NCBI GenBank assembly: GCA_963705375.1
Contig: OY970071.1
Location: forward strand, 30,001 to 62,000
Reading direction: 5' to 3'
Length of the DNA stretch: 32,000 bases
Source of the DNA: Candidatus Saccharimonadota bacterium
Lineage (GTDB): Archaea; Micrarchaeota; Micrarchaeia; Micrarchaeales; Micrarchaeaceae
The notes under the pieces are model-generated. The model had not been told where the DNA came from and did no database searches. It worked only from the letters and a program-made list of their open reading frames with translations. Made by a program: the position numbers and the translations under genes. This document shows, piece by piece, positions 4,015 through 28,871 of this stretch (positions within the stretch are counted from its first letter, which is position 1; every line of letters starts with the position of its first letter).

Positions 4015-4085
4015 TTGCAGTACAGAAGATATTAAACTCTTGCATGGACATAGAAGAACAGCGCTTCACAAGCTGGTGTGTTACT

Positions 4086-7000
4086 ATGGAAACCATTGAT
4101 TTGCTCAAGATAGAGAGTATGGTGCTGGACAAGTGGTCTGCCGAAAACACAAGGCAGAAGATAAACGAAAAAAACAAGAACAACAAAGTATTTTTCTTCC
4201 TGGAAGGGCCGCCGTACGCGAATGGCGAGCTCCACATGGGCCATGCTAGGGGCTACATCCGGAAGGATGCCGTGCTTAGATACAAGCGCATGCGGAAGTT
4301 CTCCGTTTTTGACAGGGCCGGCTTCGACGTGCATGGGCTTCCTATAGAAAATAAGGTCGAGAAGCATCTTGGCATAACCTCCAAAAAAGAAATCGAAAGC
4401 AAATTCGGCGTGAACAATTTCATAAAAACGTGCATAGAAACCTACAAGAGCCACATGAAGGCTCAAATTGATGACGCGATAAAATACGGCGTCTGGTTCG
4501 ATTTCGAAAACGCGTACATACCTTCAAGTCCCGACTACATAGACAAAGCGTTCGGAGTGTTCAAGAAGATATACGACAAGAGAGGCGTGTACAAGGACAC
4601 GCAGGTGATGCCATACTGCATACACTGCGGCACGGTCCTCGCCAAGGGTCCGGAAGTTGAGGAAGTCGATGACGAAGACCCGTCAGTGTTCGTTCTTTTC
4701 AATGTTGACAAGAAGGGCTCCAAAGCCAAGATTGAGCTCAGCGAGAGTATGTGCCTGCTTGTCTGGACGACGACCCCCTGGACTCTATTGGGAAACGTTG
4801 CTATCGCAGCAAACCCCAAAGAGCTGTATGTCGATGTCGAGATCGAAGGCCATAGGGTTATACTTGGTAAAGGCAGGCTTGATGCCGTTTCACAGCAACT
4901 GGGCTCTTCCCTGATAGTGCGCAGGGAGTTCTACGGATCAGAACTGGAAGGCATAAAATACGCCAATCCTGTATACTCAAGTCCTAAGGATGGTGCCATT
5001 CCGAAAAAGAGAGTCGCATCTTTCCGCACCGTTGTGCTTGACGAAGCTCTGGTGACCATGTCTGAAGGAACCGGGCTTGTGCACATAGCGCCCGCTTATG
5101 GGCCGGAAGACTTTGACCTTGCAAGCCGCAAAAAGTTGCCGTTTATTTCAGTCGTCGATCCGGAAGGCTTCTACACCCAAGAAGCCGGAAAGTATGCCGG
5201 AAAACACCTGATACACGAGGCAAACCGAGAGATAGAGACCGAACTTAAGAACACAAACATGCTGCTGGCGAAGACCACGATAAAGCACAAGTATCCTCAC
5301 TGCTGGCGATGCAAGGAAAAGCTAGTGTACCTGCCGACGACTCAGTGGTTCATAAAGGTGTCAAGGCTGAAGGACAAGATAAGGAAGGCATGCCAAAAGG
5401 TCGAATGGCACCCTGCAGAGCTAAAGGATTGGTTCATCGACGCCATAGACTTGGCGCCGGAATGGACCATCAGCAGGCAGAGATATTGGGGCATTCCGAT
5501 GCCGATATGGGTCTGCGACTCGTGCAAGGGCGTTAAAGTCATCGGCTCGTTTGAAGAACTGAAAATTGCGTCAGGGCTAGGCCTCAAGTTCGCAGAAGAG
5601 ACCCTCCATCGGCCGGCAATCGACGATATAACATTCTCCTGCGATAGTTGCGGCGGCGTGATGCACAGGATAAAGGATGTTTTCGACGTCTGGTTTGATT
5701 CTGGCGTTGCGCACACTGCAAGCCTGAGTGCGGAAGAGTTCAATAACATGTACTCAAAGGCCTTCATCACCGAAGGGCCCGACCAGATACGCGGCTGGTT
5801 TGCGACACTCATGAAGACCGGGGTCGCTGCATACGGGAAGTCTCCGTTCAATACGATTGTCATGCAGGGATGGGTCCTTGGCGAGAACGGGGAACCCATG
5901 CACAAGAGCAAAGGCACGTATCTCGCGGCCCACGACCTGTTCGGCAAGTACTCAATCGACGCGGTGAGGCTGTTTACCTTGTCGCACGTCACGTACGAGA
6001 ACCTGCAGATAAAGCTCGGCGAAGCTGAGAAAATGCAGGCCTTCTTGCTATTGCTTTACAGTGTGACTGACCTCATAGGTATGTATGCCGATGTCGTTCC
6101 TCAGCCATACGATGTGCCTGCAACTTTCCGTACTAGTTCGAACACCCCCATTGAGGATAGGTGGATACTTTCGCGCCTGAATTCGGTAATCGAAGAAGCA
6201 ACAAAGAGCATGGACAACTATGACATATGCCAGAGCATCTCTGCCATCATTGACTTTGTAACTAACGACCTAAGCAGGTTCTACCTCAAGTCTGCAAAGA
6301 AGAGAATGTCAAACTCCTCTCCTGCCGAATCAAAGAGAACGGTCGGCATAATATCCCATGCTCTGTACAACGCTCTTCTCATGCTAGCTCCTGTCATGCC
6401 TTTCAATGCAGAGTATATCTTCAGGAATAGGTTCGGTCTCAGCGAGAGCATATTCTTCGAGGACTGGCCAAAGGCAAACAAGAAACTGATCGACCAGGAA
6501 GTCGAAAGGCGTGTCGATGTTGCAAGAGAGACTATCACGGCAATACTGAACAGCCGCGAGAAAGCGGAGATAAGCCTGCGCATGCCTGTCCTTAGCGCAA
6601 CAATAGCCGCTGTGGATGACGAGGCGGTGACCACGATCCAGGAAATGGCCACAATGATACAGGAGTTCGCTAACGTGAAGACGCTAAACGTTACGAAAGG
6701 CACCGCGAACAAGAAGAACATAATTCCCCTGTTCGCCAAGCTGGGCCCCGTGTTCAAAAACGACTCACAAGTGGTCGCTGAAGAACTGAAGGCGCAGGAT
6801 GCGGATGCTGTGGCGGGCGCAGTGGCAAAGGATGGCTATTTCAGGCTGCACACAAACAGCGGCACATTCGACATAAGGCCTGAGCACTTCACAATATCTG
6901 AAACTCCGGTGTCAGGCAACGCTTCTCTGTTCAAGTACGGGACCGTGAGCATCGACATCTCCCAGACCGAGGCGCTGAAGGAAGAATCCCTTGTGAGGGA

Positions 7001-7247
7001 GCTTGTCCGCAGGATACAGATGATGCGCAAGGAGATGAAGCTAACGAGGCTCAAGAAAATCCGGCTTCACATAGCAGCAGACGCGCAGATGTCCGGAATA
7101 ATAAACAAAAACAAAGCGCAGATGGCAAAGACCGTTGTCGCAGACTCCTTAAGCGTGCAGAACGGCCTTCCGGACAGGAAGCTGTACAAGAAGGACTGGG
7201 AGATCATGGACGCCACGTTAAGCATAGGCATAGAGGTTGCGGACTAG
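4086..7247 (+). CDS. ileS: Isoleucyl-tRNA synthetase
   Basis: Class I motifs PPYANGELHMGHARGY (HIGH variant) and MHKSKGT (KMSKS). IleRS-typical WTISRQRYWGIPMPIW and several CxxC zinc knuckles; archaeal length. The ORF opens at 4044, but the TATA-like gatattaaac at 4028-4037 favours the ATG at 4086 (METIDLLK...). Confidence 0.92.
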   Translation: METIDLLKIESMVLDKWSAENTRQKINEKNKNNKVFFFLEGPPYANGELHMGHARGYIRKDAVLRYKRMRKFSVFDRAGFDVHGLPIENKVEKHLGITSKKEIESKFGVNNFIKTCIETYKSHMKAQIDDAIKYGVWFDFENAYIPSSPDYIDKAFGVFKKIYDKRGVYKDTQVMPYCIHCGTVLAKGPEVEEVDDEDPSVFVLFNVDKKGSKAKIELSESMCLLVWTTTPWTLLGNVAIAANPKELYVDVEIEGHRVILGKGRLDAVSQQLGSSLIVRREFYGSELEGIKYANPVYSSPKDGAIPKKRVASFRTVVLDEALVTMSEGTGLVHIAPAYGPEDFDLASRKKLPFISVVDPEGFYTQEAGKYAGKHLIHEANREIETELKNTNMLLAKTTIKHKYPHCWRCKEKLVYLPTTQWFIKVSRLKDKIRKACQKVEWHPAELKDWFIDAIDLAPEWTISRQRYWGIPMPIWVCDSCKGVKVIGSFEELKIASGLGLKFAEETLHRPAIDDITFSCDSCGGVMHRIKDVFDVWFDSGVAHTASLSAEEFNNMYSKAFITEGPDQIRGWFATLMKTGVAAYGKSPFNTIVMQGWVLGENGEPMHKSKGTYLAAHDLFGKYSIDAVRLFTLSHVTYENLQIKLGEAEKMQAFLLLLYSVTDLIGMYADVVPQPYDVPATFRTSSNTPIEDRWILSRLNSVIEEATKSMDNYDICQSISAIIDFVTNDLSRFYLKSAKKRMSNSSPAESKRTVGIISHALYNALLMLAPVMPFNAEYIFRNRFGLSESIFFEDWPKANKKLIDQEVERRVDVARETITAILNSREKAEISLRMPVLSATIAAVDDEAVTTIQEMATMIQEFANVKTLNVTKGTANKKNIIPLFAKLGPVFKNDSQVVAEELKAQDADAVAGAVAKDGYFRLHTNSGTFDIRPEHFTISETPVSGNASLFKYGTVSIDISQTEALKEESLVRELVRRIQMMRKEMKLTRLKKIRLHIAADAQMSGIINKNKAQMAKTVVADSLSVQNGLPDRKLYKKDWEIMDATLSIGIEVAD

Positions 7248-10082: not shown

Positions 10083-11357
10083 TTGCCAATCCTTAATGTG
10101 GACCGGTTTGCGATACTCAATGAGCTTGGAAACGGCGACACGACGCGTCATGTGAAACGCTCGGACATCGTTTACAGGCACATGCGCGACCCTGCACTTC
10201 TCAGGTACTATTACAAGCTGAAGCTGCAGCCGTTCACTAACAAGCTGGAGCTTGCCGGGAGCTCGCCAACCGATCTGTTCATAGGACGATTCGGTTATCC
10301 CAAAGTGTTCATCGGTCCTCTGGTACCTCCGGAGTTTGGGGACACCTCCGTACTAGGTACGCCTGAACGCTGGCGCAGCATGAGCATAGAGCAGGTCGTG
10401 GAGATGAGGTCGAAGCTTGTGCGAGGAGTCCACCTAACCAGCGTGAAGAATGTAGAGGCTGGCAAGATAGAGGAGTTTGTCAGGGACCTTGCGCTCGCAG
10501 AGCGTCCGGCAGAAGCCGAGGTATCATTTGCCAGGAAGCCGGTGGCAAAGATCGCGATGCAGGACGAGGTCCAGCCGTTCGGCCCAAGTGCCGAGATGAA
10601 GACATTCGAGCTGTACAATGTCAAGACTGACAAGAAGGTCGAAAGCAGGTACAGCGACATAGATGCGAAGGCCAACACATCCATGGTCGAGCTCTACAAC
10701 AAGGGTGTGCCAGTGTCTAAGATACAGCGCGGGCTTTCTGCTGGTCTGTTCGGCATGAAGAACGATCGGAAGTTCGTGCCGACAAGATGGAGCATCACTG
10801 CCGTTGACGACACGCTATCGAAGTCAAACCTTGAGACCGTGAAGAGCTTTGACCCAATAGACTCGATATACGCGTACGCCAGCACCGCGCTGGACAACAG
10901 GTGGCTCATATTCTTCATACCTGGCAACTGGCAGTATGAGTCTATAGAGGCATGGTATCCGAACACCGTGTGGAACGAGAACGGCAAGGATGTGAGCATC
11001 TTCGGCTCTTATGAGAACTACAACGGCCGGAAGCACTATGCAGAAATAGGTGGCTGTTATTATTCAGGAAGGCTGGCAGTGACAGAGGCAATGATGTCCT
11101 TGCAGAAGCAGGCGATGGCCCTCATACTGCGAGAAGTGCACGATGGCTACCTCATGCCTGTTGGCGTATGGAACGTGCGCGAGCACGTAAGGGAGACCCT
11201 GGAAACCCAACCTATGATAATGCACAGCATGAAGGACATGTTCGAGTGCATCCAGCGTGTCTTCGAGATAGGCACAAAGGACTGGATCAAGAACAGCGTG
11301 ATGCTCACAGAGCTCATAAGGCAGAAGCGGCTTGCCGAGTACATGGGCGCAAGATAG
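10083..11357 (+). CDS. Nre-family (DUF650/DUF651, NreA-like) archaeal DNA-repair-associated protein
   Basis: Family-typical SPTDLFIGRFGYPKVFIGPLVPPE block and overall length. The extreme C-terminus QKRLAEYM fits the PIP-box pattern Qxx[ILM]xx[FY][FYLM]. TTG start; an in-frame stop at 10071 leaves no room for a longer N-terminus. Confidence 0.65.
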   Translation: MPILNVDRFAILNELGNGDTTRHVKRSDIVYRHMRDPALLRYYYKLKLQPFTNKLELAGSSPTDLFIGRFGYPKVFIGPLVPPEFGDTSVLGTPERWRSMSIEQVVEMRSKLVRGVHLTSVKNVEAGKIEEFVRDLALAERPAEAEVSFARKPVAKIAMQDEVQPFGPSAEMKTFELYNVKTDKKVESRYSDIDAKANTSMVELYNKGVPVSKIQRGLSAGLFGMKNDRKFVPTRWSITAVDDTLSKSNLETVKSFDPIDSIYAYASTALDNRWLIFFIPGNWQYESIEAWYPNTVWNENGKDVSIFGSYENYNGRKHYAEIGGCYYSGRLAVTEAMMSLQKQAMALILREVHDGYLMPVGVWNVREHVRETLETQPMIMHSMKDMFECIQRVFEIGTKDWIKNSVMLTELIRQKRLAEYMGAR

Positions 11358-11396: not shown

Positions 11397-12770
11397 CTAT
11401 GGTTGCTGATTGATCGCATACCAGCCTGGTTTCGGCTGTTCTATGGCATGTCCTTTTCTGAGCAGGTTCAGATGCCGATTTACAGCACTTGAAGTAAGTG
11501 GAGAGAGTCCCGCGTCTGCTCTTATCTCGTTTAATCTTTCTGTTAGTTCGCTATTTTTGATCGGGTTGCCGTTTTCAGAACGCAATATTGCCAATAAAGC
11601 GCTTCTCACTTTAGGACCGGATGCAGGTCCCACATTGTTCCTTTCAGCGCCATATATTTCAAAGACATTTCCGATGTGCTCTACCAGCAACTGCGGGTCT
11701 GATGTGTACATCGACAGCTTATCTCTGAACCCTTCTGTTCTAGGGTTCATCGTCTCTGCGGCTCTGCCTATCGGCTCAAGCAGGTCATTCCACAATAAGA
11801 AGGTTAGTTCATTTGCTTTTGCTATGGATCTCTTACAGCCTTCAAACTGCGAGTTCAAGTGGCCCGTATTTCTGAGATAAGACAATATGCCGCTTGCGTG
11901 TTCCTTACGTATGCCTATTTTGTCTACGAGCTCATTATGATCAAGCGCTTTCTTCGGATTCTCGTTGAAGCAATCAACGACTGCCCTCAACCCGCCAGGC
12001 CGATTGAATTTAGGATAACGCATTTTTATGTCCTTCAAGCATGTTTCATAGTCCAGCGTAGACTCGGCCTTATATATTGCCCAACCACGTGCGCGCTTGC
12101 CGCCATATTCCTTATAGGGAGACATATAGGCAATCATTCCAGATGCACCTAGCGAACTCAATGCGAAGGAGACTGCATCACGGGTCAACCCTAACTTTTC
12201 TAACTTTTTTACGATGGCACCATTGTCAAATTCAGTGTCAGGGCTATTTGCAAGAAGCCTGGTTATCATGTACACTGAAAAGCCCCTCCTCGCGGATGCG
12301 TCCTCAGTCTTGTTAGAACTACTGAAAATCCTCAGAAGAGACAGCGGTGTGGGTTTTCCGTGCTCTAGTAGTTCATTAACAAATGCAATTCCTAGCGCAG
12401 CCGCAGGATCTCCAAAGGCACTTCCGGCACCAGTCTTCTCGTACGCATACGCCGCTTTTGGTCCAGTTGCAGTCATTACAGTCGTTACTTCCACTTTTAC
12501 TGTAGCACCTATTGAACTTAGGCTCCCCTCCCAATTGCCGGCACCATTGCAGTATCCCCACGTTGCGGTACTTGTTAACGGCAATTCGTCCAGGTCTGCA
12601 AAGCGCATCACTTGTTTATATAGCTCGGCTTTGGTATAGCGCACATCGGACTGCATCGACCACAAAGTGATGGCTTTCGGATCAGGACTCAGAACGCCGC
12701 TCGTCAGCGCCTCTACCCTTAACTGAAAGCCTCCTGAGCCTCTCTGATTCCAGACCGCTGTGCTTGACAT
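11397..12770 (-). CDS. Orphan 457-aa protein with three winged-helix-like segments
   Basis: ATG at 12770 (MSSTAVWNQ...) is preceded by tatttatat about 27 nt upstream; the longer ORF-track N-terminus looks non-coding. wHTH-like stretches: ITRLLANSP..GAIVKKLEKLGLTRDAVSFALSSLGASGMI; ALDHNELVDKIGIRKEHASGILSYLRNTGHL; ILRSENGNPIKNSELTERL...TSSAVNRHLNLLRKGHAIE. Confidence 0.6.
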   Translation of the reverse strand: MSSTAVWNQRGSGGFQLRVEALTSGVLSPDPKAITLWSMQSDVRYTKAELYKQVMRFADLDELPLTSTATWGYCNGAGNWEGSLSSIGATVKVEVTTVMTATGPKAAYAYEKTGAGSAFGDPAAALGIAFVNELLEHGKPTPLSLLRIFSSSNKTEDASARRGFSVYMITRLLANSPDTEFDNGAIVKKLEKLGLTRDAVSFALSSLGASGMIAYMSPYKEYGGKRARGWAIYKAESTLDYETCLKDIKMRYPKFNRPGGLRAVVDCFNENPKKALDHNELVDKIGIRKEHASGILSYLRNTGHLNSQFEGCKRSIAKANELTFLLWNDLLEPIGRAAETMNPRTEGFRDKLSMYTSDPQLLVEHIGNVFEIYGAERNNVGPASGPKVRSALLAILRSENGNPIKNSELTERLNEIRADAGLSPLTSSAVNRHLNLLRKGHAIEQPKPGWYAINQQP

Positions 12771-12950
12771 GTTCTGCCATCTGTTCGGCGCGATATAAAT
12801 ACTTGTTGTTTTGCAGAAGGTACTGTTTCGGATTTGATGAAATGCGAATAGTTCCTCTTGTCTTGTCTGTAATTGCCTGTGGCTTGTGTCATTTGCGCAA
12901 AAGCCACCCAATATAAAAGCATTAAATAGTTATCATTTTATAGGATATGC

Positions 12951-13277
12951 ATGATTGGCAGTGAAAGTAAGCAAACGGGGCTTGCCAGCATATATGACGT
13001 CGCAAGCATACTCGAGGAGCGCAAGAAGGCAAGCGCACTGACCTACGAGCAGCAGCTCGCGTTGGAGCACGCAACGAAGCTGGTCAAGGGCAACGAACAG
13101 TCTAAGAAGACGAAGAACGAACTTGGAAAGCTCGGCACTCTTAGCGAGAGATCAATTGTGAAGCTTCTTGAAATAATGCCAAAGAACACAACTCTGCTTA
13201 AGCAGGTTATCGCACAGGAAGGCAAAGTATTCAGCGAGGAGGAACTCTCAAAGATACTCTTGATAACCAAGAGTTAA
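12951..13277 (+). CDS. rpoF: DNA-directed RNA polymerase subunit F (Rpo4/RpoF)
   Basis: 108 aa. The pattern ...YEQQLALEHATKL...SERSIVKLLEIMPKN...SEEELSKIL matches archaeal RpoF. It is immediately followed by a DUF655 gene, the conserved archaeal pairing. Confidence 0.7.
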   Translation: MIGSESKQTGLASIYDVASILEERKKASALTYEQQLALEHATKLVKGNEQSKKTKNELGKLGTLSERSIVKLLEIMPKNTTLLKQVIAQEGKVFSEEELSKILLITKS

Positions 13278-13303
13278 GGGTGGAACTGACCTAGGTGGGA
13301 CGT

Positions 13304-13864
13304 ATGGAGGAGCGAAGAGAAGATTATGCGTATGTACTGGACTTTCTGCAGAGCGGAAAGTCTTTCACCCACAGGGCTGAGCCCGTGGTGCAGCTTCTTG
13401 GCGAGTCCATGTTCACTATGCTTGAAGCGACGCCAAAGCCAGAAGCCACTATGGTGTTCGGCGAGCGCGTCTACATAGGCAAGAACGAGCGCGACAAGAT
13501 AATGCTCATAAAGTCAAGGATAGACTATGGGGAGCTCACCCAGACCGCAAAGAACGAGCTGCCCAATCTTGTCATGAAGATCGTGAAGAACGACGAGAAG
13601 CACTTCGTTGATATTTTCAACAACGCAGGGGCGCTTAACATGCGTCAGCATGCGCTGGAGCTGCTCCCCGGCATAGGTAAGAAGCATCTTGAGGCCATTC
13701 TAAAAGCAAGAGAGGAAAAGCCATTCGAGGGCTTCGAGGACATAAGCAAAAGAGTTGCGCTGCTCCAGGATCCTGCAAAGCTCATAACTGAAAGGATACT
13801 CTCAGAGCTGCGCGGCGACGAGCGCTTCTACATGTTCACGAAACCGTATAGGCCGAAGTTCTGA
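13304..13864 (+). CDS. DUF655-family protein (predicted nucleic-acid-binding, HhH-containing)
   Basis: EDYAYVLDFLQSG...FTMLEATPK...ERVYIGKNERDKI...LELLPGIGKKHLEAILKAREEKPFEGFEDISKRV is the DUF655 pattern. GGTG lies 6 nt upstream of ATG 13304; the ORF-track start is GTG 13295. Confidence 0.75.
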   Translation: MEERREDYAYVLDFLQSGKSFTHRAEPVVQLLGESMFTMLEATPKPEATMVFGERVYIGKNERDKIMLIKSRIDYGELTQTAKNELPNLVMKIVKNDEKHFVDIFNNAGALNMRQHALELLPGIGKKHLEAILKAREEKPFEGFEDISKRVALLQDPAKLITERILSELRGDERFYMFTKPYRPKF

Positions 13865-13884: not shown

Positions 13885-14616
13885 TCATTCGTCTGCAGAC
13901 GAATCCTTCTTTTCAGATTCATCCAACTTCTGAGATTCCAGCCTTATCAGCGTTTTTAGGTTCTCCATCCTTGCTGTGTTGCCATACGTTTCGAGATTCG
14001 TGATCTCGAGCTCTGCCTTCCTGATAAGCTCTCTTGTGATCTCTTGCATTTCGCTATTTTCTTCGGCTGCATCTCTTATCCATACTGCGCCAGCGTATTT
14101 GGCAACTTCGTCTCTGCCTGTGGCGTCAATGTGCAAGAGGTCTTTCGAATAGTTGCCGAATCCTATTACTATGTCTCCCTTTCCAGGAGTAACCCAAGCA
14201 ATCAATTTGCTATCTATCAATTCAAGTCTTTCAAGAATATCCTTCCTGTCTGCCTCGGAGATGTTGATCCAACCGGTCTTGTATTTTGCTTTTATCAGAG
14301 GAAGAGGGACGAGCTCTCCGCTTCGGGGGATTATTGCGCATGGCCCTCCAAAAGCCTCGGATATTCCCCTTTCGCCTGTAGCTATGCGCTGCTCTGAGTC
14401 CAACGCCATAGTCGCTACTTTAGTATCTTGCCCAATAAGTTTCACAACCTCTTCATACCCTGCCAGGTGCCATTCATCTCCAAGCATTTCTGTGATTGCT
14501 TTCCTCTGCTCCTCAGTCAGTTTTTCTCTTGACAGACAGAGATTGCCGTCTAATTCGACCAAACCCAATAATTTGCCCAGAGCGGTGTTTTTTTGTTCCT
14601 TTGTAATGCTGCTCAT
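13885..14616 (-). CDS. Orphan 243-aa protein whose C-terminus carries one copy of a 40-aa helical module
   Basis: ATG 14616 (MSSITKEQKN...) with tatatatat about 35 nt upstream. The C-terminal MQEITRELIRKAELEITNLETYGNTARMENLKTLIRLESQ is homologous to the repeats of the upstream gene. Confidence 0.6.
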   Translation of the reverse strand: MSSITKEQKNTALGKLLGLVELDGNLCLSREKLTEEQRKAITEMLGDEWHLAGYEEVVKLIGQDTKVATMALDSEQRIATGERGISEAFGGPCAIIPRSGELVPLPLIKAKYKTGWINISEADRKDILERLELIDSKLIAWVTPGKGDIVIGFGNYSKDLLHIDATGRDEVAKYAGAVWIRDAAEENSEMQEITRELIRKAELEITNLETYGNTARMENLKTLIRLESQKLDESEKKDSSADE

Positions 14617-14701
14617 TTTAACACAGTAATGCTGGATAAATCCAGATATATATACTTGCGCCTGTACGCCGTCACGATGGCGCAGCACCTCGTTTTAGGC
14701 G

Positions 14702-15329: not shown

Positions 15330-16325
15330 ATGGCAAAAACCAAAAGGTTAACGAATAGACAGTTCCGAAGATTTTTCAAGGAGTTCAAGAAACTGATTGA
15401 GATTTACGGCGAAAAAACGGCAGAAAAACACACTGACTGGAAAACATATGAAGAAGAATATGCAAATAGGATAAGATATGTCGCGAAAGAGTTGAACATT
15501 CTTACAAAATCAGCAATAGACTCTATTGAGATGAAGGTATCCAAATTCGGAAGACCTGCAAAATTGTCTCTCCAACAGAAGGTGGTTGCGCTTATCCTAA
15601 AATCGATTTTCTGCAAAAACAACAGACCAATGGCCGGACTGATGTCCCTTTTTGGCGCATTTTGTGGCATTGACATTAGTTACAAAACTGTCGAAAGGAT
15701 GTATTCTGATGAACTGGTGCGAATTGTTTTGCACAACATGTTTATTCTGACGATAAAACGAAAATGTGATAAGAAAATAGATGTGAGCGGAGACGGAACG
15801 GGTTACACACTAACAGTAACGAAACATTACCGTACACAAGTCGATAAAGAAGGGTACAGGAAATTCGTGTATTCGTTCAATCTCATCGACATAAAGAATG
15901 GGTTGTACATATGTTATGGCTCGGGTATACGATCTGAAAAGGAAGCATTCGAAAATGCAATGAAGCTGCTCAGAAATGTAGAGGTGGCCACAGGGATAAC
16001 AGTCAATAGTGCAAGGTTAGACAGGTACTATAGTTACCAATCAACTTTGAAGTATTTTGACGACAAAACTGTTTTGTACATAATCCCAAAGAGCAACACA
16101 ACAATAAATGGCCCGTCTAGATGGAGGAAGATATTCAGACGGATGATGAAGGATCCTCTGTCCTACTTGATAGAGTACTACAAAAGGGAGAAGTCTGAGA
16201 ATGGTTGGTCTGTAGATAAACGGATGGTTGGGTGGAAAATATGGCAGAAAAGAAATGACAGAATCGATACAGCAATAAGTTGTACTGCAACACTTCACAA
16301 CTTATTCAGAATCGGTTATGGATGA
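15330..16325 (+). CDS. DDE transposase, IS4/IS5 superfamily
   Basis: 331 aa. N-terminal GRPAKLSLQQKVVALILKSIF DNA-binding segment. Candidate DDE residues in VSGDGTGY, ARLDRYYS and the exact Y-x2-R-x3-E-x6-K signature YYKREKSENGWSVDK. The stop overlaps IRR. Confidence 0.85.
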   Translation: MAKTKRLTNRQFRRFFKEFKKLIEIYGEKTAEKHTDWKTYEEEYANRIRYVAKELNILTKSAIDSIEMKVSKFGRPAKLSLQQKVVALILKSIFCKNNRPMAGLMSLFGAFCGIDISYKTVERMYSDELVRIVLHNMFILTIKRKCDKKIDVSGDGTGYTLTVTKHYRTQVDKEGYRKFVYSFNLIDIKNGLYICYGSGIRSEKEAFENAMKLLRNVEVATGITVNSARLDRYYSYQSTLKYFDDKTVLYIIPKSNTTINGPSRWRKIFRRMMKDPLSYLIEYYKREKSENGWSVDKRMVGWKIWQKRNDRIDTAISCTATLHNLFRIGYG

Positions 16326-19245: not shown

Positions 19246-19680
19246 CTAGCCGTTGGCAAAGGTTCCAATTCCTACCGGCAAATAACCCCAATCACCAACT
19301 AGTTTAATATTCATCCATTCTGCCAGTTCTTCACTAGGGTAGATCCTGCGTGGATTGGCGGGCTCGTATCTGAAAAGATTCTGATACGTTTGACCGTCTC
19401 TTCTTGCAAATGTATCTATATACTCTGCTCCCGTGTCGCTTGTTACTTCAAAATACGCGTCGGCTATGGGTACGTTTCTCTCGTGCGCATTAATCAAAAT
19501 GAAAACCAATATTGTAGACTCTATGAATGTGCTTTGAAGTGGAGAGCCGCTAAATATTGTGCGTGTAGACAGGCTACCGGCCTCTGTCCTATTGACTATT
19601 GCATCAAGCTTCTCTCTCAACGATTCTACACGTAACATATCTGAGGGCGTATCTCTGTCCCTGTTTATGTTTGAGGACAT
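19246..19680 (-). CDS. Orphan 144-aa protein
   Basis: ATG-initiated ORF with a protein-like composition; no motif recognised. Confidence 0.5.
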   Translation of the reverse strand: MSSNINRDRDTPSDMLRVESLREKLDAIVNRTEAGSLSTRTIFSGSPLQSTFIESTILVFILINAHERNVPIADAYFEVTSDTGAEYIDTFARRDGQTYQNLFRYEPANPRRIYPSEELAEWMNIKLVGDWGYLPVGIGTFANG

Positions 19681-19851: not shown

Positions 19852-20136
19852 TCAGCCTGCCTTCTGGAGGTGCACTGCAGGAACCACAAGCTTCTTCCAA
19901 GAATCTAGAACGTGAAGCTTTATGATGTATGCGGAGCCGCGCTTATCGATTATCTTTCCGGTCTTTCCGCGGTAGCGCATGTGCGGCGCGTTCCCCATTC
20001 TGCCGTTGGGGAGTACGACGACGCTGTCGCCTATGTTGAAGCTCTTAACCAAGTCCCTCACCCGCAGCTTCGATGGCTTGCGGTGCCTGGCCATGATCCT
20101 TGTCTTTCCTCTTAGAAACCCTGATGAGTGCTTCAT
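19852..20136 (-). CDS. rpl21e: 50S ribosomal protein L21e
   Basis: SSGFLRGKTR...FNIGDSVVV...MPHMRYRGKTGKIIDKRGSAYIIKL is the L21e signature; 94 aa. Confidence 0.92.
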   Translation of the reverse strand: MKHSSGFLRGKTRIMARHRKPSKLRVRDLVKSFNIGDSVVVLPNGRMGNAPHMRYRGKTGKIIDKRGSAYIIKLHVLDSWKKLVVPAVHLQKAG

Positions 20137-20175
20137 ATAATCAGTGCGAGTTATTGCTATTGTTTGGAGGAGAAC

Positions 20176-20183
20176 TATTTAAA
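20176..20183. promoter_or_regulatory. Shared TATA-like box TATTTAAA between divergent rpl21e and the TBP-repeat gene
   Basis: 32 nt upstream of ATG 20215 and 40 nt upstream of ATG 20136. Near-palindromic TTTAAA core. Confidence 0.4.
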
Positions 20184-20214
20184 GGCTTGCACAGAATAAT
20201 AGAATGGTGCAATA

Positions 20215-20541
20215 ATGCCCAAAAAGAGCTCTCAAGGATTCTTACCTAAGCATAAGCATGCGGTGCTTAAGCCGACTTATAGGGTTGAAAACATCGTGGC
20301 GAAGGCCGAACTCGGAGTTGATCTTGACCTCTACTATCTGGCCAAACTATCGCACGACATAGACTATGAACCAGAACAGTTCCCTGGCGCTATATTCAAG
20401 GTCCATGACCCAAAAGCAGCATTGCTCCTGTTCAAGAACGGCAAAGTCATATGCACAGGCGCTAGGACGCGTGCCGACATAAAGAAGAGCATAGAGCGCG
20501 CCGTCGATCTTGTCAACAAGTACCTGGCCAGCAAGCACTGA
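20215..20541 (+). CDS. tbp: Single-repeat TATA-box-binding-protein (TBP) domain protein, 108 aa
   Basis: One TBP repeat: YRVENIVAKAEL..DLDLYYLAKL...DYEPEQFPGAIFKVHDPKAALLLFKNGKVICTGARTRADIKKSIERAVDLVNKY. It is preceded by the basic extension MPKKSSQGFLPKHKHAVLKPT. There is no second repeat in any frame of the flanks. Confidence 0.85.
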   Translation: MPKKSSQGFLPKHKHAVLKPTYRVENIVAKAELGVDLDLYYLAKLSHDIDYEPEQFPGAIFKVHDPKAALLLFKNGKVICTGARTRADIKKSIERAVDLVNKYLASKH

Positions 20542-20690: not shown

Positions 20691-22412
20691 ATGGCTGAGA
20701 TGACTGGCGCAAGGGCTCTGCTCGAAGCGCTGAAGAAAGAGAAGGTGTCCACGATCTTCGGGATACCTGGTGGTGCAAGCCTTCCTATTTATGACGAACT
20801 TCCTGACAGCGGCATAAGGCACATACTATGCAGGCATGAGCAAGGTGCCGCACACATGGCTGACGGCTATGCGCGAGCCAGCGGAAGGGTTGGCGTATGC
20901 ATGGCGACATCAGGGCCTGGCGCTACCAACCTTGTGACGGGCATAGCGACGGCCTATTTGGATTCTTCGCCTATCGTGGCGATAACTGGCCAGGTGACTC
21001 GGCCTCTGATAGGCACGGACTCTTTCCAGGAAGTCGACATAATCGGCATCACCACTGCGATAACAAAATACACATTCCAGCCCATGGGTGCGACAGAGAT
21101 CCCGCGCGATGTAAAGAAGGCGTTCTACATCTCATCGACCGGAAGGCCCGGCCCTGTCCTGATAGACATTCCAAAGGACGTTCAGCAAGAAAAAGCCGAA
21201 ATCTCATTTCCTGAGAGCGTAACTGTACTGGGCTACAAGCCCGTGCTGTCTCCGCATCCTCTTCAAGTGGAAAAAGCCGCTGATCTTCTGGCGAAGGCGA
21301 AGCGGCCGGTCCTGTGGGGCGGCGGCGGTGTGATCCTCAGCAACGCTGCAGAACCGTTCCGAAAAATAGCAGAGCTGCTGATGGCTCCTGTCGTCACGTC
21401 CTTGATAGGCAAGGGTGCGTTTCCAGAGAACCATCCATTAGCTCTAGGGCCGATAGGCATGCACGGCACCGCAGAAGCGAACAAGCTAGTCCTTGAAACC
21501 GATTGCCTGCTTGCGGTCGGTGTCAGGTTCTCCGACAGGTCTACTGGCAACTACAGCGAATTCTGCCCTGACGCAAAGATAATACACATCGATGTCGATC
21601 CCTCAGAGATAGGTAAGAACAAGAAAGTGGACATGCCCATAGTGGGAGATGCAAGGCTCACGCTTACAGGAATATATGAGGCACTTACGCGCAGGGTAGT
21701 GCAGAAAGGGAAGGGCTCGCCGTGGCTCCAGCGGGTTGAAGTTGTGCGGGAAGAATTGAAAAACACTTCAAATGCTGATACATCGGGCCTGACTACCGTG
21801 CTTGCCATAAAGAAGATACGCGAACTGCTGCCTGCGAATGGCATACTGGCGACGGAGGTCGGAAAGCATCAGATGTTTGCATCGCTCAACTACAAAGTCA
21901 TAGAACCAAGGACGTGGATCACTTCAACAGGACTTGGCACCATGGGCTTCGGGTTCCCTGCAGCAATAGGTGCAAAAGTGGCCAAGCCTGGCGTGCCTGT
22001 CGTTGATCTGGCAGGCGATGGCAGCTTCTGCATGACCGAGAACTCCCTTGCCGTCTGCGTAGAAGAAGGGATACCGGTTACCGTGGTCATACTCAACAAC
22101 AGGTCTCTCGGCCTCGTTGAGCAGTGGCAGCGCATGTTCTACAATCGCAAGTTCTCTGCAGTGAAGTTCAAGGACACTCCTGATTTCGTGAAGCTTGCGG
22201 AGGCCTACGGTGCGACCGGCATACGCGCGCAATCGATCAAAGAGCTCGAGAAGGCATTGAAGCAAGGTATTGCGAGTGACGGGCCCACAGTCATAGACGT
22301 TCCGGTATCTTCAGAGGAAGACGTGTTCCCCTTTGTCCCTCCCGGTACGGGCCTGAAGGACATCCTTTACGGCCCTGCAAGCGGCGCAAAAATTGGTGCA
22401 GATCATGAATAA
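20691..22412 (+). CDS. ilvB: Acetolactate synthase (acetohydroxyacid synthase) large subunit, ThDP-dependent
   Basis: 573 aa. N-terminus MTGARALLEALKKEKVSTIFGIPGGASLPIYDEL. ThDP-binding GDGSFCMTENSLAVCVEEGIPVTVVILNN. Confidence 0.92.
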   Translation: MAEMTGARALLEALKKEKVSTIFGIPGGASLPIYDELPDSGIRHILCRHEQGAAHMADGYARASGRVGVCMATSGPGATNLVTGIATAYLDSSPIVAITGQVTRPLIGTDSFQEVDIIGITTAITKYTFQPMGATEIPRDVKKAFYISSTGRPGPVLIDIPKDVQQEKAEISFPESVTVLGYKPVLSPHPLQVEKAADLLAKAKRPVLWGGGGVILSNAAEPFRKIAELLMAPVVTSLIGKGAFPENHPLALGPIGMHGTAEANKLVLETDCLLAVGVRFSDRSTGNYSEFCPDAKIIHIDVDPSEIGKNKKVDMPIVGDARLTLTGIYEALTRRVVQKGKGSPWLQRVEVVREELKNTSNADTSGLTTVLAIKKIRELLPANGILATEVGKHQMFASLNYKVIEPRTWITSTGLGTMGFGFPAAIGAKVAKPGVPVVDLAGDGSFCMTENSLAVCVEEGIPVTVVILNNRSLGLVEQWQRMFYNRKFSAVKFKDTPDFVKLAEAYGATGIRAQSIKELEKALKQGIASDGPTVIDVPVSSEEDVFPFVPPGTGLKDILYGPASGAKIGADHE

Positions 22413-22953
22413 CAATAGCCACATCATATCTGTGATAGTCGAAAACAAGCCAGGAGTCCTTTTCAAGGCAGCCAACATGTTCAGGCGCAGAGGATTCAAC
22501 ATAGAGAGCCTGACTGTCGGGCGCATAGCGCGTCCCGGGCTGTCCAAGATGACCATTGTCGTCAACGGGGACGAAAGGACAACAGAACAGCTCATAAAGC
22601 AGATCGCGAAGCTTCTTGACGTGATAAAGATTACAGAGCTCGGGCCAAGGACTGCGGTGATACGCGAGCTCGCGCTTGTACGAATATCAACTCCTGACCA
22701 GAAGGCCATGGCGGACATAACTCACTTCGCGCGCGCATTTGAGGCCCGGACCGTCGATGTGACCAAGGATTCTACTACAGTCGAGCTGACGGGCGATTCT
22801 GACCGCATAGACGACTTCATCGGCCTTGTGCAGGGCTACGGCATAAAGGACATATCGCGCACCGGGCTCACTGCAATACAGAAAGGCTCGTACACCTCAC
22901 AGAGCAAGGCGCAGAAGCTAGCCGTGGAAGGTAATGCTGTGTCAACTGATTAG
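22405..22953 (+). CDS. ilvH: Acetolactate synthase small (regulatory) subunit, ACT domain
   Basis: HIISVIVENKPGVLFKAANMFRRRGFNIESLTVG is the IlvH/IlvN ACT signature. ATG 22405 overlaps the ilvB stop by 8 nt. Confidence 0.9.
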   Translation: MNNNSHIISVIVENKPGVLFKAANMFRRRGFNIESLTVGRIARPGLSKMTIVVNGDERTTEQLIKQIAKLLDVIKITELGPRTAVIRELALVRISTPDQKAMADITHFARAFEARTVDVTKDSTTVELTGDSDRIDDFIGLVQGYGIKDISRTGLTAIQKGSYTSQSKAQKLAVEGNAVSTD

Positions 22954-24123
22954 AGCGGCTGTCCGTGTCTCTTTATTGCGCTTTGTCGCATGCAGCGTGA
23001 TGTCGTGCCTGTTGTGCGGCAGCTTCTTTATCCCGAACGCTTCATAGCTCTTGGAAAGTCCTGCCTCTGCGTCCGCGATCTGCTCTTTCGTGTTGCTGCC
23101 GAAAAGCTTTATCGTCATTATCAGATGCGCACCAGGGTTTAACACTCCTGCAAAAGACTCTGCGATCTCTGCGCTGGCTGCCGCATCTGTGTTGGTGTCT
23201 ATTGTGAGCAGGTCAAAGCTGCCAAAGCTCTCAAGCAAGCCCTTCTTGACGTAATCAGCGCTATTTTTTATGTGTATGACTGAATACTTGGCAAAATTCG
23301 CGCCGGCATCATCTATGTCAGCAAAATCAACACTGCTGTCTTTCAGTGTTTTTTGAATGGAAGGTATCTCTTCTCTGCGCAAAATTACCAGGACCTTTCC
23401 TTCTTTGCCTATTCTTTCATAGTCGAGCAATGCGTTATCCATGGCCACTACTTTCACTCCATGTTCTGTAAGGTAGTGCGTCCAGCCTCCTGGCGCTGCC
23501 CCTATGTCCAGTGCGCGAGAAACCTTGGAAAGATCGATTCCGAAGAATTCTATTGCTTCTTCTATCTTGAATTCTGCACGGTTGATCTTGAATGCAACCT
23601 CTTTCTGTCTGTGTCTAAATTGGTCCAGGACGTAACTCGCGGCTTTGCTTCTTTCAATGATGCCTATCGCAGTCTTTCCCTCCAGAAATATGAGGTACAC
23701 GACCATTTCAGGATTCTTAAGGTCGGGTACGAATCCTTTGGACTCTAGTGCGTTCCCCACCTTCACTTCAATTGCCTTCGCCTTATCGAAGAGTCCGGAG
23801 TTGATTCTCTTTACCTCTATCTTGAACGCCCTTCTTTTGTCCAAAAGCTGCTCTACGGCTCTTATCACATTACCGTATCCGCTTCCGACGCTGTCCAATT
23901 CTGCGTCTATCGGGATTGCAGCTTCTACGAACGACAATTTACCCGCCTTTATGACTGAAAGCCTTTTTTCCTTGTCGCCTTTTATGTTTGCAATGAAAAA
24001 GTGCGCGTCCCGCTGTATCTCTCCTGTATAGTCTGCGCCGAACAGCTTTTTCAACTCTGCGTCTGCGTCTTCTTCAAACCTATGCTCTGCAAATATTATG
24101 TATCGTCTTTTTTCCAAGCGCAT
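22942..24123 (-). CDS. THUMP-domain plus FtsJ/RlmM-like SAM-dependent RNA ribose methyltransferase
   Basis: THUMP-like FKIEVKRINSGLFDKAKAIEVKVGNALESKGFVPDLKNPEMVVYLIF. Then INRAEFKIEEAIEFFGI and the SAM motif ALDIGAAPGGWTHYL. ATG 24123 (MRLEKRRY...) is preferred over the longer ORF. The 3' end overlaps ilvH by 12 nt (convergent). Confidence 0.75.
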   Translation of the reverse strand: MRLEKRRYIIFAEHRFEEDADAELKKLFGADYTGEIQRDAHFFIANIKGDKEKRLSVIKAGKLSFVEAAIPIDAELDSVGSGYGNVIRAVEQLLDKRRAFKIEVKRINSGLFDKAKAIEVKVGNALESKGFVPDLKNPEMVVYLIFLEGKTAIGIIERSKAASYVLDQFRHRQKEVAFKINRAEFKIEEAIEFFGIDLSKVSRALDIGAAPGGWTHYLTEHGVKVVAMDNALLDYERIGKEGKVLVILRREEIPSIQKTLKDSSVDFADIDDAGANFAKYSVIHIKNSADYVKKGLLESFGSFDLLTIDTNTDAAASAEIAESFAGVLNPGAHLIMTIKLFGSNTKEQIADAEAGLSKSYEAFGIKKLPHNRHDITLHATKRNKETRTAALIS

Positions 24124-24213
24124 CTCCTGGCTTTCCTGTTTTGTGAATCTTATTGCCTGTCTGTAGTCCTGCAACAGCTTTAAAATGTTCGCACAGAATA
24201 CTGTGTGGTAAAT

Positions 24214-24540
24214 ATGGACGCAGGACAACCTATAAACATAGACCTTTCAAAAACGAACATAAGGCCCATCTTCGCCGATGAGGTCGCTGTTGTAATTAAG
24301 CTTAAGGCTTCGAAAAACCAGAAAGGCGAAGCTGAGAAGGAAGGGCTTATAAGCATAATATTTCTCGACATGATGAAGCAGAAACCTATAGGCGAGTTCG
24401 TGGTGTCCCGGACGACTGCAAAAGCGCTGTCATCAGTTCTTTCTCAGAACATAATCACTCTTGAGAAGGAGCTAAAAAGCAAAGAAATGCCAAAGGCACC
24501 TGCGATAAAGACTACGACAGACACTAGTGCTATACGATAG
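24214..24540 (+). CDS. Small conserved-looking hypothetical protein (possibly DUF3467-like)
   Basis: ATG 24214 lies about 30 nt downstream of gctttaaaatg. The layout ...IFADEVAVVIKL...ISIIFLDM...EFVVSRTTAKALSSVLSQNI resembles DUF3467, but the family call is weak. Confidence 0.45.
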   Translation: MDAGQPINIDLSKTNIRPIFADEVAVVIKLKASKNQKGEAEKEGLISIIFLDMMKQKPIGEFVVSRTTAKALSSVLSQNIITLEKELKSKEMPKAPAIKTTTDTSAIR

Positions 24541-26817: not shown

Positions 26818-28719
26818 TCAGTCTCCTGGATGATAGTCCTGCTCGGTACGCCTTCTGATCTCCTTTTTCAATGCGCTTTGGCCCAGATTCGTGCTCGCCT
26901 CCCGGAGCTCTGTAAGCCCTATCAATTGCCTTGCTATGCTGCCGGACCACCAGGTATCTGCACCGTATAGCTTTCGTGCTTTGTAGTTTTCACTTAATCC
27001 ACTCACATTTTCTAGGGTTCTCTGAGCAATCAGCCTATATGCATCTTGCATAGTCTCTGCTTTCTTTACCTGTCCGACAAACCTTTCGAATTCTGCTTGA
27101 TCGAAACCGTTTGGTGAAGCGGTAAGCTCTTGGAACTTTAGGATAGAAATAAACCAAGGCTTGTCATACGCCGATAACTGGTCCTCGTATGTAAGGGATT
27201 GGAGTTTTTTGTCCCCTTGCCTGTCAAGCCATGATATGATAGATATCAAATTGGGCTCAATGCCCGCCTCGCCATGTTCCATCATCGCCTCCAACTTATC
27301 ATTAACATAGGTCAAAGCCCTCTCCAGAGGCGTGTCATACACGCTACCGCTCCTGACCAAACGTGCCATCCTTTCATTCAATTCGGGGTCAGAGGTGCTC
27401 GGAGGGGTTTCTACTTCAGGTTCTGTATTCTTTAACAGGCGCATTAGGACGTCTACTGCCTTTTCAGGAGCGTTGTGCTCCTTTACCAAAACCTCTCTTT
27501 CGTAAAAGGGCCTATCCTGGACTTCCTTTAATAGGTCATTTACTAGCTCGCCGTATCCGCTACGTCCAAGACTTCGCTCATAATCTGCCGCTCTCGTAAA
27601 AGCGGCATCTAGCTCTTTCTTGTCGTTGGTGCTGTAATAGCTAGCCATGGCCTTGATGAGTTCATGTACATAAGGTCTTTCGTCATGCACTGTTTCTTTC
27701 AACAGACCGCTTAACGCAGGTGCGTCTACTCTGTTTTGTTTTAGCCTAGATAAATTTGTCCCTGGAACCTGGCTCATAATCATTAACAGCTCGTTTATGT
27801 TGGGTGGTGTTACACGTACGGCGTAGCAATGAACGATGAAATCGCCTATGCCGAATGCATCGAGATCCCCTGCAAATATGTTATGCCCGCTTGTCAATAT
27901 GGCTATTTGATCGTCTTTGGTTTTGAAGGCAGGAAGCAACTTGTCTATAAGGCTTCGTGTGCTATCGTCGGTTAATAGATGGTGCCCGCTATATTGGTGC
28001 ACAACAGAATGAAGAAAGTCTTCCTGAACCTTGGTGTCTGTAACCGGCATTTCCTTGAACAACCTTAAGATTCTACTAGCTTGTTCCGGGCTATTTAAGC
28101 CAACGCCTATCGATACGGCCTGGGCCAAATACTTCGAAGATTCCCCTTTAAGGTTTTCTGGACTGGAAAATATATACGCATAAACTTCGATCGCAACCTC
28201 AAAATGTTTCCTTAAGTCGTCTAAGCTTAAATTTGGCCGTGGTGCCGTACCTGCCGCCAGATGCGCCCCAACCAATATCTTTATCGTGTCTATATACGAT
28301 GTTGCCATTTTGCGTATGGTGCTCTCTGATTGGTCTGTTAAAAATCGCTCTCTCCATTTGTGCGCCTGTTCTTGAAGAAGTTCTGCTTCGGCCAGCGAAT
28401 TGACCGCTTTTGTCAAGATAATCATGGTTACGGCACGTATTCTATCCTTTTCCTGAATGGCTGCGTACGTTTGATAACGAGAACAGTATGCCGTACTGTC
28501 TGTGTCTGCTAGAGCTCGTAGATATGGTTCCAAATCCTTTCTAGGAATGTCCTTTTTTATTAGTTCTTCTGCAAGCTTTCTTCTGGCATCTGGCTCGTTC
28601 TCACGTCCCTCTTCGCCATACTCGGAAATCGCAGGCAAAACTCGATTTATCAGCTGTTCAATTTCTGCATGTTTTCTTTCATCGGCCTTGACTTGTGAAC
28701 TGGACTTTGTTGTCCCCAT
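26818..28719 (-). CDS. Orphan 633-aa alpha-helical protein
   Basis: Long uninterrupted ORF. ATG 28719 (MGTTKSSSQ...) with ataaatattt about 30 nt upstream. No catalytic or binding motif recognised. Confidence 0.65.
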   Translation of the reverse strand: MGTTKSSSQVKADERKHAEIEQLINRVLPAISEYGEEGRENEPDARRKLAEELIKKDIPRKDLEPYLRALADTDSTAYCSRYQTYAAIQEKDRIRAVTMIILTKAVNSLAEAELLQEQAHKWRERFLTDQSESTIRKMATSYIDTIKILVGAHLAAGTAPRPNLSLDDLRKHFEVAIEVYAYIFSSPENLKGESSKYLAQAVSIGVGLNSPEQASRILRLFKEMPVTDTKVQEDFLHSVVHQYSGHHLLTDDSTRSLIDKLLPAFKTKDDQIAILTSGHNIFAGDLDAFGIGDFIVHCYAVRVTPPNINELLMIMSQVPGTNLSRLKQNRVDAPALSGLLKETVHDERPYVHELIKAMASYYSTNDKKELDAAFTRAADYERSLGRSGYGELVNDLLKEVQDRPFYEREVLVKEHNAPEKAVDVLMRLLKNTEPEVETPPSTSDPELNERMARLVRSGSVYDTPLERALTYVNDKLEAMMEHGEAGIEPNLISIISWLDRQGDKKLQSLTYEDQLSAYDKPWFISILKFQELTASPNGFDQAEFERFVGQVKKAETMQDAYRLIAQRTLENVSGLSENYKARKLYGADTWWSGSIARQLIGLTELREASTNLGQSALKKEIRRRTEQDYHPGD

Positions 28720-28871
28720 TCGACTCACACAATTGTGCCCTTTTCAAATATTTATGCGTATCTGGGCGTTAAAGAAGGCGTGCCTTGTTGGTTTGTTGCG
28801 CTTCATACATTGCCTCTTATGTTTCGGGCCCTCTGGACCTAAATGCCTATTAAAGCTTTGTATCACAATCC

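Follow-up and report, generated by a model that had tools for sequence, protein, structure and literature searches.

A one-repeat TATA-binding protein gene at the canonical TBP locus of Micrarchaeota, and a second one-repeat gene that may encode its partner

A stretch of 32,000 nucleotides from a micrarchaeal genome was analysed (GenBank assembly GCA_963705375.1, contig OY970071.1, positions 30,001 to 62,000; the whole stretch is called here the window), and it was found to encode a protein of 108 amino acids that contains exactly one TATA-binding protein (TBP) repeat. To our knowledge, all cellular TBPs characterised so far have their two repeats within one chain. The one-repeat protein belongs to a constrained family, named here type A, its gene is the positional orthologue of the two-repeat TBP gene of related archaea, and it co-occurs with genes of a second one-repeat family, type B. 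We consider it probable that the window gene encodes the A subunit of a TBP that was split into two genes in this Micrarchaeota (DPANN) lineage. From the sequences we infer that the products dimerise and bind DNA and the transcription factor TFB, and that a two-repeat TBP is absent.

The gene extends on the forward strand from an ATG to a TGA (positions 20215-20541, 108 codons plus the stop, from the list of open reading frames (ORFs) and from reading of the sequence). The family model PF00352 matched the protein once and over almost all of the model (positions 2-85 of 85, at residues 22-103 of the protein; E = 3.7e-25), with a score of 88 bits vs a gathering cut-off of 22.9. No second stretch was matched by this model in the protein, and two-repeat proteins used as controls (P0002 and P0004) gave two stretches each, so the single repeat proposed in a first-pass annotation, made from the sequence alone, was borne out. 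The protein also remained below the cut-off of all ten NCBIfam models for complete TBPs, with 58-85 bits vs cut-offs of 181-347 (the best was NF001592, 84.5 bits vs 270), because only half of each of these models is matched. When compared with solved TBPs (E = 1e-39 to 1e-25), the window repeat aligned about equally with the N-terminal (N) and C-terminal (C) repeats of the archaeal proteins, the scores for those of M. jannaschii TBP (2z8u) being 66.7 and 67.5 bits, respectively.

The lone repeat (residues 22-103, positions 20278-20523, forward strand) has the element order S1-H1-S2-S3-S4-S5-H2, according to the Pfam coordinates and to the secondary structure predicted by AlphaFold2. The roles of the Phe pair and of the minor-groove residues are known from TBP structures, and the DNA-contact residues N26, V28, F56, F73 and T81 are all found in the window protein. 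The sequence reads as a stirrup, E52-P53-E54-Q55 (20368-20379), followed by the first DNA-kinking Phe, F56 (20380-20382), and the second one, F73 (20431-20433), is located within LLLFKNGK in an invariant column; both had been recognised in the first-pass annotation. F56, F73, V28 and T81 are invariant across the aligned type-A, type-B and two-repeat relatives, N26 is invariant in alignment A1 and at least 90% conserved in alignment A3, and the stirrup motif is invariant in A, B and both repeats of the two-repeat relatives. In the C repeat of the P. woesei TBP (1AIS), E52-P53-E54 aligns with YEPEQF, and we equate the EPEQ motif with the stirrup by which the canonical TBP contacts TFB/TFIIB, and F56 with its intercalating Phe.

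Outside of the Pfam match, residues 1-21 (20215-20277, forward strand; MPKKSSQGFLPKHKHAVLKPT) form a basic extension, the first 21-22 residues being rich in Lys and His, and a motif within it, P-x-H-K-[HR]-[VA]-V-L-[KH]-P-T-Y, is kept across the close type-A family. The C-terminus (...NKYLASKH) lacks an acidic tail, so that both ends of the protein are as they had been described at first. An AlphaFold2 model built with 57 half-size homologues as input had a mean confidence score (pLDDT) of 85.8, low in residues 1-22, and its predicted fold superposes on one repeat of the M. jannaschii TBP (2z8u) with 1.0 Å over 78 residues. By Foldseek, the model likewise fits one repeat of the M. jannaschii, Pyrococcus, plant, yeast and human TBPs, with root-mean-square deviations of around 1 Å over 77-79 residues.

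Proteins of type A, with 105-117 amino acids, were detected in dozens of independent Micrarchaeota assemblies (from JGI, ENA, NCBI and Logan), where the genes have the same stop and the same neighbours. Orthologues of 105-115 amino acids with 74-95% identity to the window protein occur in many assemblies, and the protein database contains 24 clusters of 106-115 amino acids, 76-95% identical to it, among them one from a 706-kb contig; their named members are assigned to "Candidatus Micrarchaeia", and NCBI annotates type-A proteins as 'hypothetical protein'. A scan of GTDB species genomes gave further one-repeat orthologues, around 61-79% identical; this and all other conclusions from that scan concern the matches listed, which lacked the window's own species. 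The mean internal identity of type A is 66%, and the window protein shows about 54% identity to the N as well as to the C repeat of the Micrarchaeota TBPs, the closest two-repeat proteins reaching around 54-59%. The core of the family is nearly invariant, with pairwise ratios of nonsynonymous to synonymous substitution rates (dN/dS) of 0.02-0.12 at saturated dS, and the length of the gene and the position of its stop are conserved. Type A is a conserved family under purifying selection.

The position of the gene was also studied. The ribosomal protein gene rpl21e (19852-20136, reverse strand; PF01157), a divergent neighbour that marks the canonical TBP locus, lies directly upstream on the opposite strand both in the window and in the type-A loci of relatives, and in 23 of the 28 two-repeat TBP loci listed for other Micrarchaeota rpl21e is likewise found on the opposite strand, at most 250 nt upstream. 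As this arrangement is common to both kinds of loci, type A is orthologous by position to the canonical TBP gene and not an extra paralogue set elsewhere. The gaps that flank the window gene measure 78 nt to rpl21e and 149 nt to ilvB (20691-22412, forward strand), its downstream neighbour, and neither of them holds a trace of a second repeat, for which they had been judged too short from the sequence alone. A search of the 32-kb window in any frame, with a hidden Markov model of the repeat against stop-to-stop ORFs of at least 50 amino acids, gave one domain in the ORF of the window gene and no second TBP-like ORF.

When relatives were searched for further half-size TBP ORFs, as suggested in the first-pass annotation, a separate family was found in addition to the type-A orthologues. 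This family, type B, is a second and sharply distinct one-repeat TBP, 45-50% identical to type A, whose consensus (alignment A2) reads ...P.IKIQNIVVSADLHAVIDLYALSK.VKAVDYEPEQFPGAIFKI.EPKAVIILFKNGKMICTG..., and every DNA-contact and stirrup residue is common to A and B. The type-B protein of the window genome, P0206, has 132 amino acids and is 45% identical to the A protein. In total, type-B loci amount to 73 from metagenomes and at least 22 from GTDB genomes. A DNA pattern for the B motif ILFKNGKxICTG selected 73 metagenome contigs, all 73 of which carry a one-repeat B gene; the 706-kb contig that encodes the A-type protein P0003 is outside this set, from which no conclusion is drawn for that contig. 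The 120 matches listed in a profile search with alignment A2 were all two-repeat proteins; in such a search two domain scores outrank half-proteins. The neighbourhood of type B consists of an FAD-dependent oxidoreductase gene (reverse strand), the B gene (forward), a GT4 glycosyltransferase gene (reverse) and then genes for SRP54 and a DRG-type GTPase; nuo genes are found upstream, and adjacency to rpl21e was found in 0 of the 22 type-B loci listed. Two side observations were made on this family. In assembly GCA_049966995.1, an IS605 OrfB/TnpB-type gene (L159:86-1342) lies beside the type-B locus. A representative protein of 127 amino acids, P0396, has the first half of a type-B protein and the second half of a type-A4 protein, joined at DYEPEQFPGAI, which both share, and is probably either a recombinant or a mis-assembly across this motif. 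Such a chimera hints at a sample in which A4-type and B genes were together.

Types A and B are encoded in the same genomes. Two metagenome-assembled genomes (MAGs) from NCBI carry both: GCA_049966995.1, with A (P0057, ACP5TL_03330) on contig JBMFTN010000039 and B (P0260, ACP5TL_01295) on JBMFTN010000006, and GCA_049966775.1, with A (P0101, ACP5UH_03605) on JBMFTZ010000027 and B (P0283, ACP5UH_00640) on JBMFTZ010000002. For the organism of the window, the exact window protein and P0206 each have a single contig of 1,209,602 bp on record, the three sources being the same for both, and both are present in run ERR11594402, whose B contig is similar to the window in GC content (47.3 vs 47.8%) and in tetranucleotide composition (r = 0.89, the highest among the loci tested). 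The contig sizes in the match tables are those of the cluster representative (38,459 bp for P0001, vs 1,209,602 bp for its member P0292), which makes comparisons of them between tables unreliable. The common contig size and sources, the shared run and the match in composition point to A and B being on one chromosome-sized contig of 1.21 Mb. Among the matches listed in the GTDB scan no assembly had both A and B, a scan that is uninformative on absence, and to take it as evidence against their co-occurrence would be wrong, given that both were found together in the two NCBI MAGs. Also among those matches, and as weak evidence, no assembly had a half-gene plus a two-repeat TBP gene. In the closed genome of the micrarchaeon Mia14, two proteins of arCOG01764 (TBP) were counted, and one in 13 of the 14 other DPANN genomes compared with it (PMC5498576, Supplementary Data 4).

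Three readings of the one-repeat protein had been offered in the first-pass annotation, namely a homodimerising TBP, a half of some split or heteromeric TBP whose partner is encoded elsewhere, and a TBP-derived accessory factor. The second is favoured, as genomes with type A also encode type B, a homodimer may coexist with the heterodimer, and the accessory factor is disfavoured by the canonical locus. According to the split-TBP model, gene A would have been kept at the ancestral TBP locus, divergent from rpl21e, and gene B (P0206) is located elsewhere, between the FAD-dependent oxidoreductase and GT4 glycosyltransferase genes. Each product would fold as one TBP repeat, and two repeats would pair non-covalently through the pseudo-dyad interface of an ordinary TBP, so as to build a ten-stranded saddle whose four Phe would kink the TATA box and whose two YEPEQF stirrups would be shown to TFB. 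The likeliest working species would be an A:B heterodimer, since the retention of two diverged halves, each of them strongly constrained, argues for it; A2 and B2 homodimers are possible and could add regulatory variety. In archaeal initiation complexes, direction derives from the contact of TFB with the B recognition element (BRE) rather than from TBP. The polarity of the complex would thus be set by TFB-BRE contacts, so that a nearly symmetric TBP would be workable.

Several points weigh against this model. The pairing of A with B is deduced from their sequences. The location of both genes on one contig in the organism of the window is drawn from identical sizes of 1,209,602 bp and identical sources, not from coordinates, and in both MAGs the two genes fall on separate contigs, which makes errors of co-binning possible. 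The arCOG01764 pair of Mia14 is known by count and not by the size of its proteins, and a two-repeat TBP may be encoded in the genomes with A and B. Finally, all the DNA-binding and stirrup residues, that is, the Asn and Val of S1, both Phe residues, the CTG Thr and the EPEQ stirrup, are kept in both families, and the sequences do not force a heterodimer over a homodimer.

This last point leads to an alternative that we hold to be rather unlikely, in which A would be a homodimeric TBP (A2) and B an independent second general factor (B2), each with its own promoters or its own TFB, in analogy to the multiple alternative TBPs of haloarchaea. The two-repeat TBPs of relatives, up to 89% symmetric, agree with it in that a fully symmetric saddle is evidently tolerated, and so do several other one-repeat lineages, a partner having been examined for only one of them. 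However, A and B are in the same genome wherever this was checked, and with a heteromer one would expect exactly two diverged halves to be retained over a long time. A lower probability is given to an accessory factor derived from TBP, comparable to the TbpA of Halobacterium or the monopartite TBP-domain proteins of Thermococcales, that would cap, compete with or modulate a two-repeat TBP encoded elsewhere, which we regard as improbable. Known proteins with a single TBP domain do occur alongside full-length TBPs, and TbpA is reported to be non-essential (PMC3597702), but the window gene is at the canonical TBP locus beside rpl21e, and its product is around 54% identical to bona fide TBP repeats, with the functional residues kept and a very low dN/dS. 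In addition, the two arCOG01764 members of Mia14, if both halves are among them, leave no room for A, B and a full-length TBP, and the GTDB matches without any such combination of genes argue weakly in the same direction.

That the one-repeat gene is an artefact of assembly or sequencing, by collapse of near-identical tandem repeats or by a premature stop, is hardly credible, because, even though the highly similar tandem repeats of relatives could collapse in assembly and locus L063 looks like such an N/C hybrid, the same gene of 105-115 amino acids recurs with its stop and neighbours in dozens of assemblies from independent sources, type A is a distinct family under purifying selection and no hybrid of a neighbouring two-repeat gene, the flanks are free of any remnant, and the conserved length, low dN/dS and recurring upstream motifs lead us to dismiss truncation, frameshift and repeat collapse in the window assembly, in agreement with the exclusion of a local frameshift made at first. 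The one-repeat ORF at L063 (1034-1318) reads as though, in a P0032-like TBP, the first half of the N repeat had been continued by the second half of the C repeat; either the assembly collapsed there or the near-identical repeats recombined in a pop-out.

To analyse the origin of the half-genes, a neighbour-joining tree with bootstrap was built with our own code from 105 repeats. Type B was recovered with 100% bootstrap, type A with 62% and A+B with 64%, and the half-proteins nest among the Micrarchaeota TBP repeats, which points to a secondary origin within the phylum. The half-TBP state is therefore probably secondary and not a relic from before the internal duplication, and the ancestral state considered in the first-pass annotation found no support as such. 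A clade of all N or of all C repeats had 0% bootstrap, the N and C repeats of a sub-lineage being near each other, which indicates concerted evolution or repeated re-duplication of the TBP repeats in Micrarchaeota. Consistent values were found within the two-repeat Micrarchaeota TBPs (e.g. P0002, P0017, P0028, P0012 and P0058), whose N and C repeats are 53-89% identical, with a mean of 65% and the maximum in P0002 (89%); both repeats of P0017 have the same second half. In classical archaeal TBPs this identity is roughly 40%. Such symmetric repeats suggest gene conversion or recent re-duplication, and with two-repeat TBPs so unusually symmetric in sister lineages, little asymmetry would have had to be preserved upon a split. 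An attempt was also made to match A with the N repeat and B with the C repeat, and no clear answer came from BLAST scores, terminal extensions or group identities (A-N 49.4%, A-C 50.5%, B-N 42.4%, B-C 45.8%, and 50% for A-B), A being equidistant from N repeats, C repeats and B.

Two routes may account for the pair. The TBP gene, with its repeats homogenised, may have undergone fission with relocation of the downstream half, or it may have collapsed by recombination to one repeat, in a manner that L063 resembles, followed by gene duplication and divergence; as there are no separate N and C clades, both routes look the same in the tree. We give even chances to the wider proposal that Micrarchaeales lack a single-chain TBP altogether, in which case their general transcription factor would be a non-covalent dimer of A, from the ancestral locus, and B, relocated, and that the number of TBP repeats is evolutionarily fluid in DPANN. 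This fluidity would be seen in repeats homogenised to 89%, in collapse to one repeat, in several independent half-gene pairs, with a second one in Candidatus Iainarchaeum AUK171, and possibly in re-fusion.

Other TBP-family genes with unusual numbers of repeats were observed. Candidatus Iainarchaeum AUK171 (JAGGYF01), from a second DPANN lineage, has two one-repeat TBP genes, L043:9995-10279, around 0.5 kb from rpl21e, and L061:9950-10249, elsewhere, neither of which falls in clade A or B, and the pair may represent an independent split. A further one-repeat clade (L072, L078, L081 and L085; 100% bootstrap) has AIMRLKEIGTTLLLFKNGK in place of AIxKxxEPKxxLLLFKNGK, with L081 at around 0.4 kb from rpl21e. 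Three or four repeat matches were found in the TBP-family proteins P0301 (272 aa), P0302 (376 aa) and P0336 (702 aa); P0301 is arranged as N-N-C with its first two repeats near-identical, and P0302 contains a eukaryote-like TBP core twice and looks like an assembly duplication. Some half-TBP genes of Micrarchaeota type are recorded under unrelated taxa, such as Marsarchaeota (L016, L017, L022, L064, L081 and P0286), Acidoferrum (L036) and Baltobacteraceae (P0225), and these records are probably mislabelled or contaminated bins.

The region upstream of the window gene (20137-20214) was compared with its equivalents at L001, L006-L009, L160 and L163. A TATA-like box had been attributed to the gene in the first-pass annotation. 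A putative promoter box, TATTTAAA, is found at 20176-20183, in the rpl21e/TBP-A intergenic region, and this octamer or a one-base variant of it is found 32-55 nt upstream of the ATG in eight orthologous loci. The box is near-palindromic and is placed within the short gap between the divergent rpl21e and TBP-A genes, so it might be an element of either or both of them. The sequence GGTG (20206-20209, forward strand), 6 nt before the ATG, recurs 4-7 nt before the ATG in 9 of 9 aligned upstream regions and would act as a Shine-Dalgarno-like signal.

Downstream, ilvB and ilvN (20691-22953, with an overlap of 20 nt) separate TBP-A from a convergent gene for an FtsJ-like methyltransferase (22942-24228), and in a relative whose sequence is 85% identical (L001-L004) the FtsJ-like gene begins 7 nt after TBP-A. 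As the FtsJ-like gene adjoins TBP-A in this relative, either the ilvBN pair is a lineage-specific insertion or the relative has lost it. Archaeal housekeeping genes syntenic with L001 are found at 12951-13864 and 10083-11357 of the window, encoding an RpoF/Rpb4-like protein (108 aa), a DUF655 protein and Nre, and the isoleucyl-tRNA synthetase (IleRS) gene is at 4044-7247. The 32 kb gave no tRNA gene. Five ORFs had no Pfam match at the thresholds used, three of them on the reverse strand with 504 (11397-12911), 636 (26818-28728) and 267 amino acids (13885-14688), together with 15330-16325 (forward strand, 331 aa) and 19246-19680 (reverse strand, 144 aa).

TBP is the textbook example of a pseudo-symmetric protein born by internal duplication. 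If the split-TBP model is true, the covalent linkage of its repeats would be dispensable in vivo, and in these archaea the homo- or heterodimeric state that has long been postulated for TBP's ancestor would be found alive in nature, with natural proteins in which the binding of a homo- or heterodimeric "proto-TBP" to DNA and TFB can be assayed. They would also be a test case for promoter polarity without asymmetry built into TBP. The annotation of these essential genes as 'hypothetical protein' would be explained, marker and completeness checks could under-count TBP in such genomes, and a striking case would be added to the pattern of gene splitting in reduced DPANN genomes.

We compared the window protein with known TBP systems. 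With the canonical archaeal TBPs (M. jannaschii 2Z8U, P. woesei 1AIS/1PCZ and the Micrarchaeota proteins P0004 and P0002) it shares the PF00352 repeat, the Phe pair, the Asn and Val of S1, the Thr of CTG and the YEPEQF stirrup, as well as the rpl21e-adjacent position in Micrarchaeota and a predicted fold at around 1 Å from one of their repeats. Whereas those proteins have two repeats in a chain, the window protein has one, and the second would be supplied by a separate gene at another locus; it also differs in its conserved basic N-terminal extension, in the lack of an acidic C-terminal tail and in failing the NCBIfam cut-offs for the whole protein.

Proteins with a single TBP repeat have been described in other archaea. 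The TbpA of Halobacterium, which has related single-domain paralogues in haloarchaea, has a single repeat that clusters with genuine TBP repeats, is reported to be non-essential and has homologues very similar to the full-length TBPs encoded in the same species (Brindefalk et al. 2013, PMC3597702). The window protein is likewise a single-repeat TBP protein, but its half-gene is at the canonical locus, belongs to a family that is old and conserved, and has a second, different half-gene as its counterpart. A recent truncated copy of the TbpA type was considered for the window protein and rejected, as its closest two-repeat proteins are only around 54-59% identical and the family is old. The monopartite TBP-domain proteins of Thermococcales, mostly of around 91-97 amino acids (NP_578195 and others), have only a distant relationship to TBP, fall in a cluster of their own and are found beside a normal TBP (PMC3597702). 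These are also stand-alone archaeal TBP-domain folds of around 95 amino acids, compared here by their description, and differ from the window protein in that the latter is a bona fide TBP repeat (E = 3.7e-25) with all the DNA-contact residues; its strong matches to PF00352 and to solved TBPs speak against a diverged protein of the Thermococcales type.

In the searchable literature, outside which most subscription journals fall, we found no description of a half, split, single-domain or monopartite TBP in Micrarchaeota, DPANN or ARMAN archaea, and no report of TBP among the split genes of reduced DPANN genomes. What appears as new here is the probable encoding of a TBP as two one-repeat subunits, proteins with a single TBP domain being known only as accessory paralogues. 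In reduced DPANN genomes such as that of Nanoarchaeum equitans, essential single-chain proteins are encoded as two separate genes whose products reassemble. In contrast to the split genes of N. equitans, the split proposed for TBP falls between homologous repeats, so that each piece could pair with itself.

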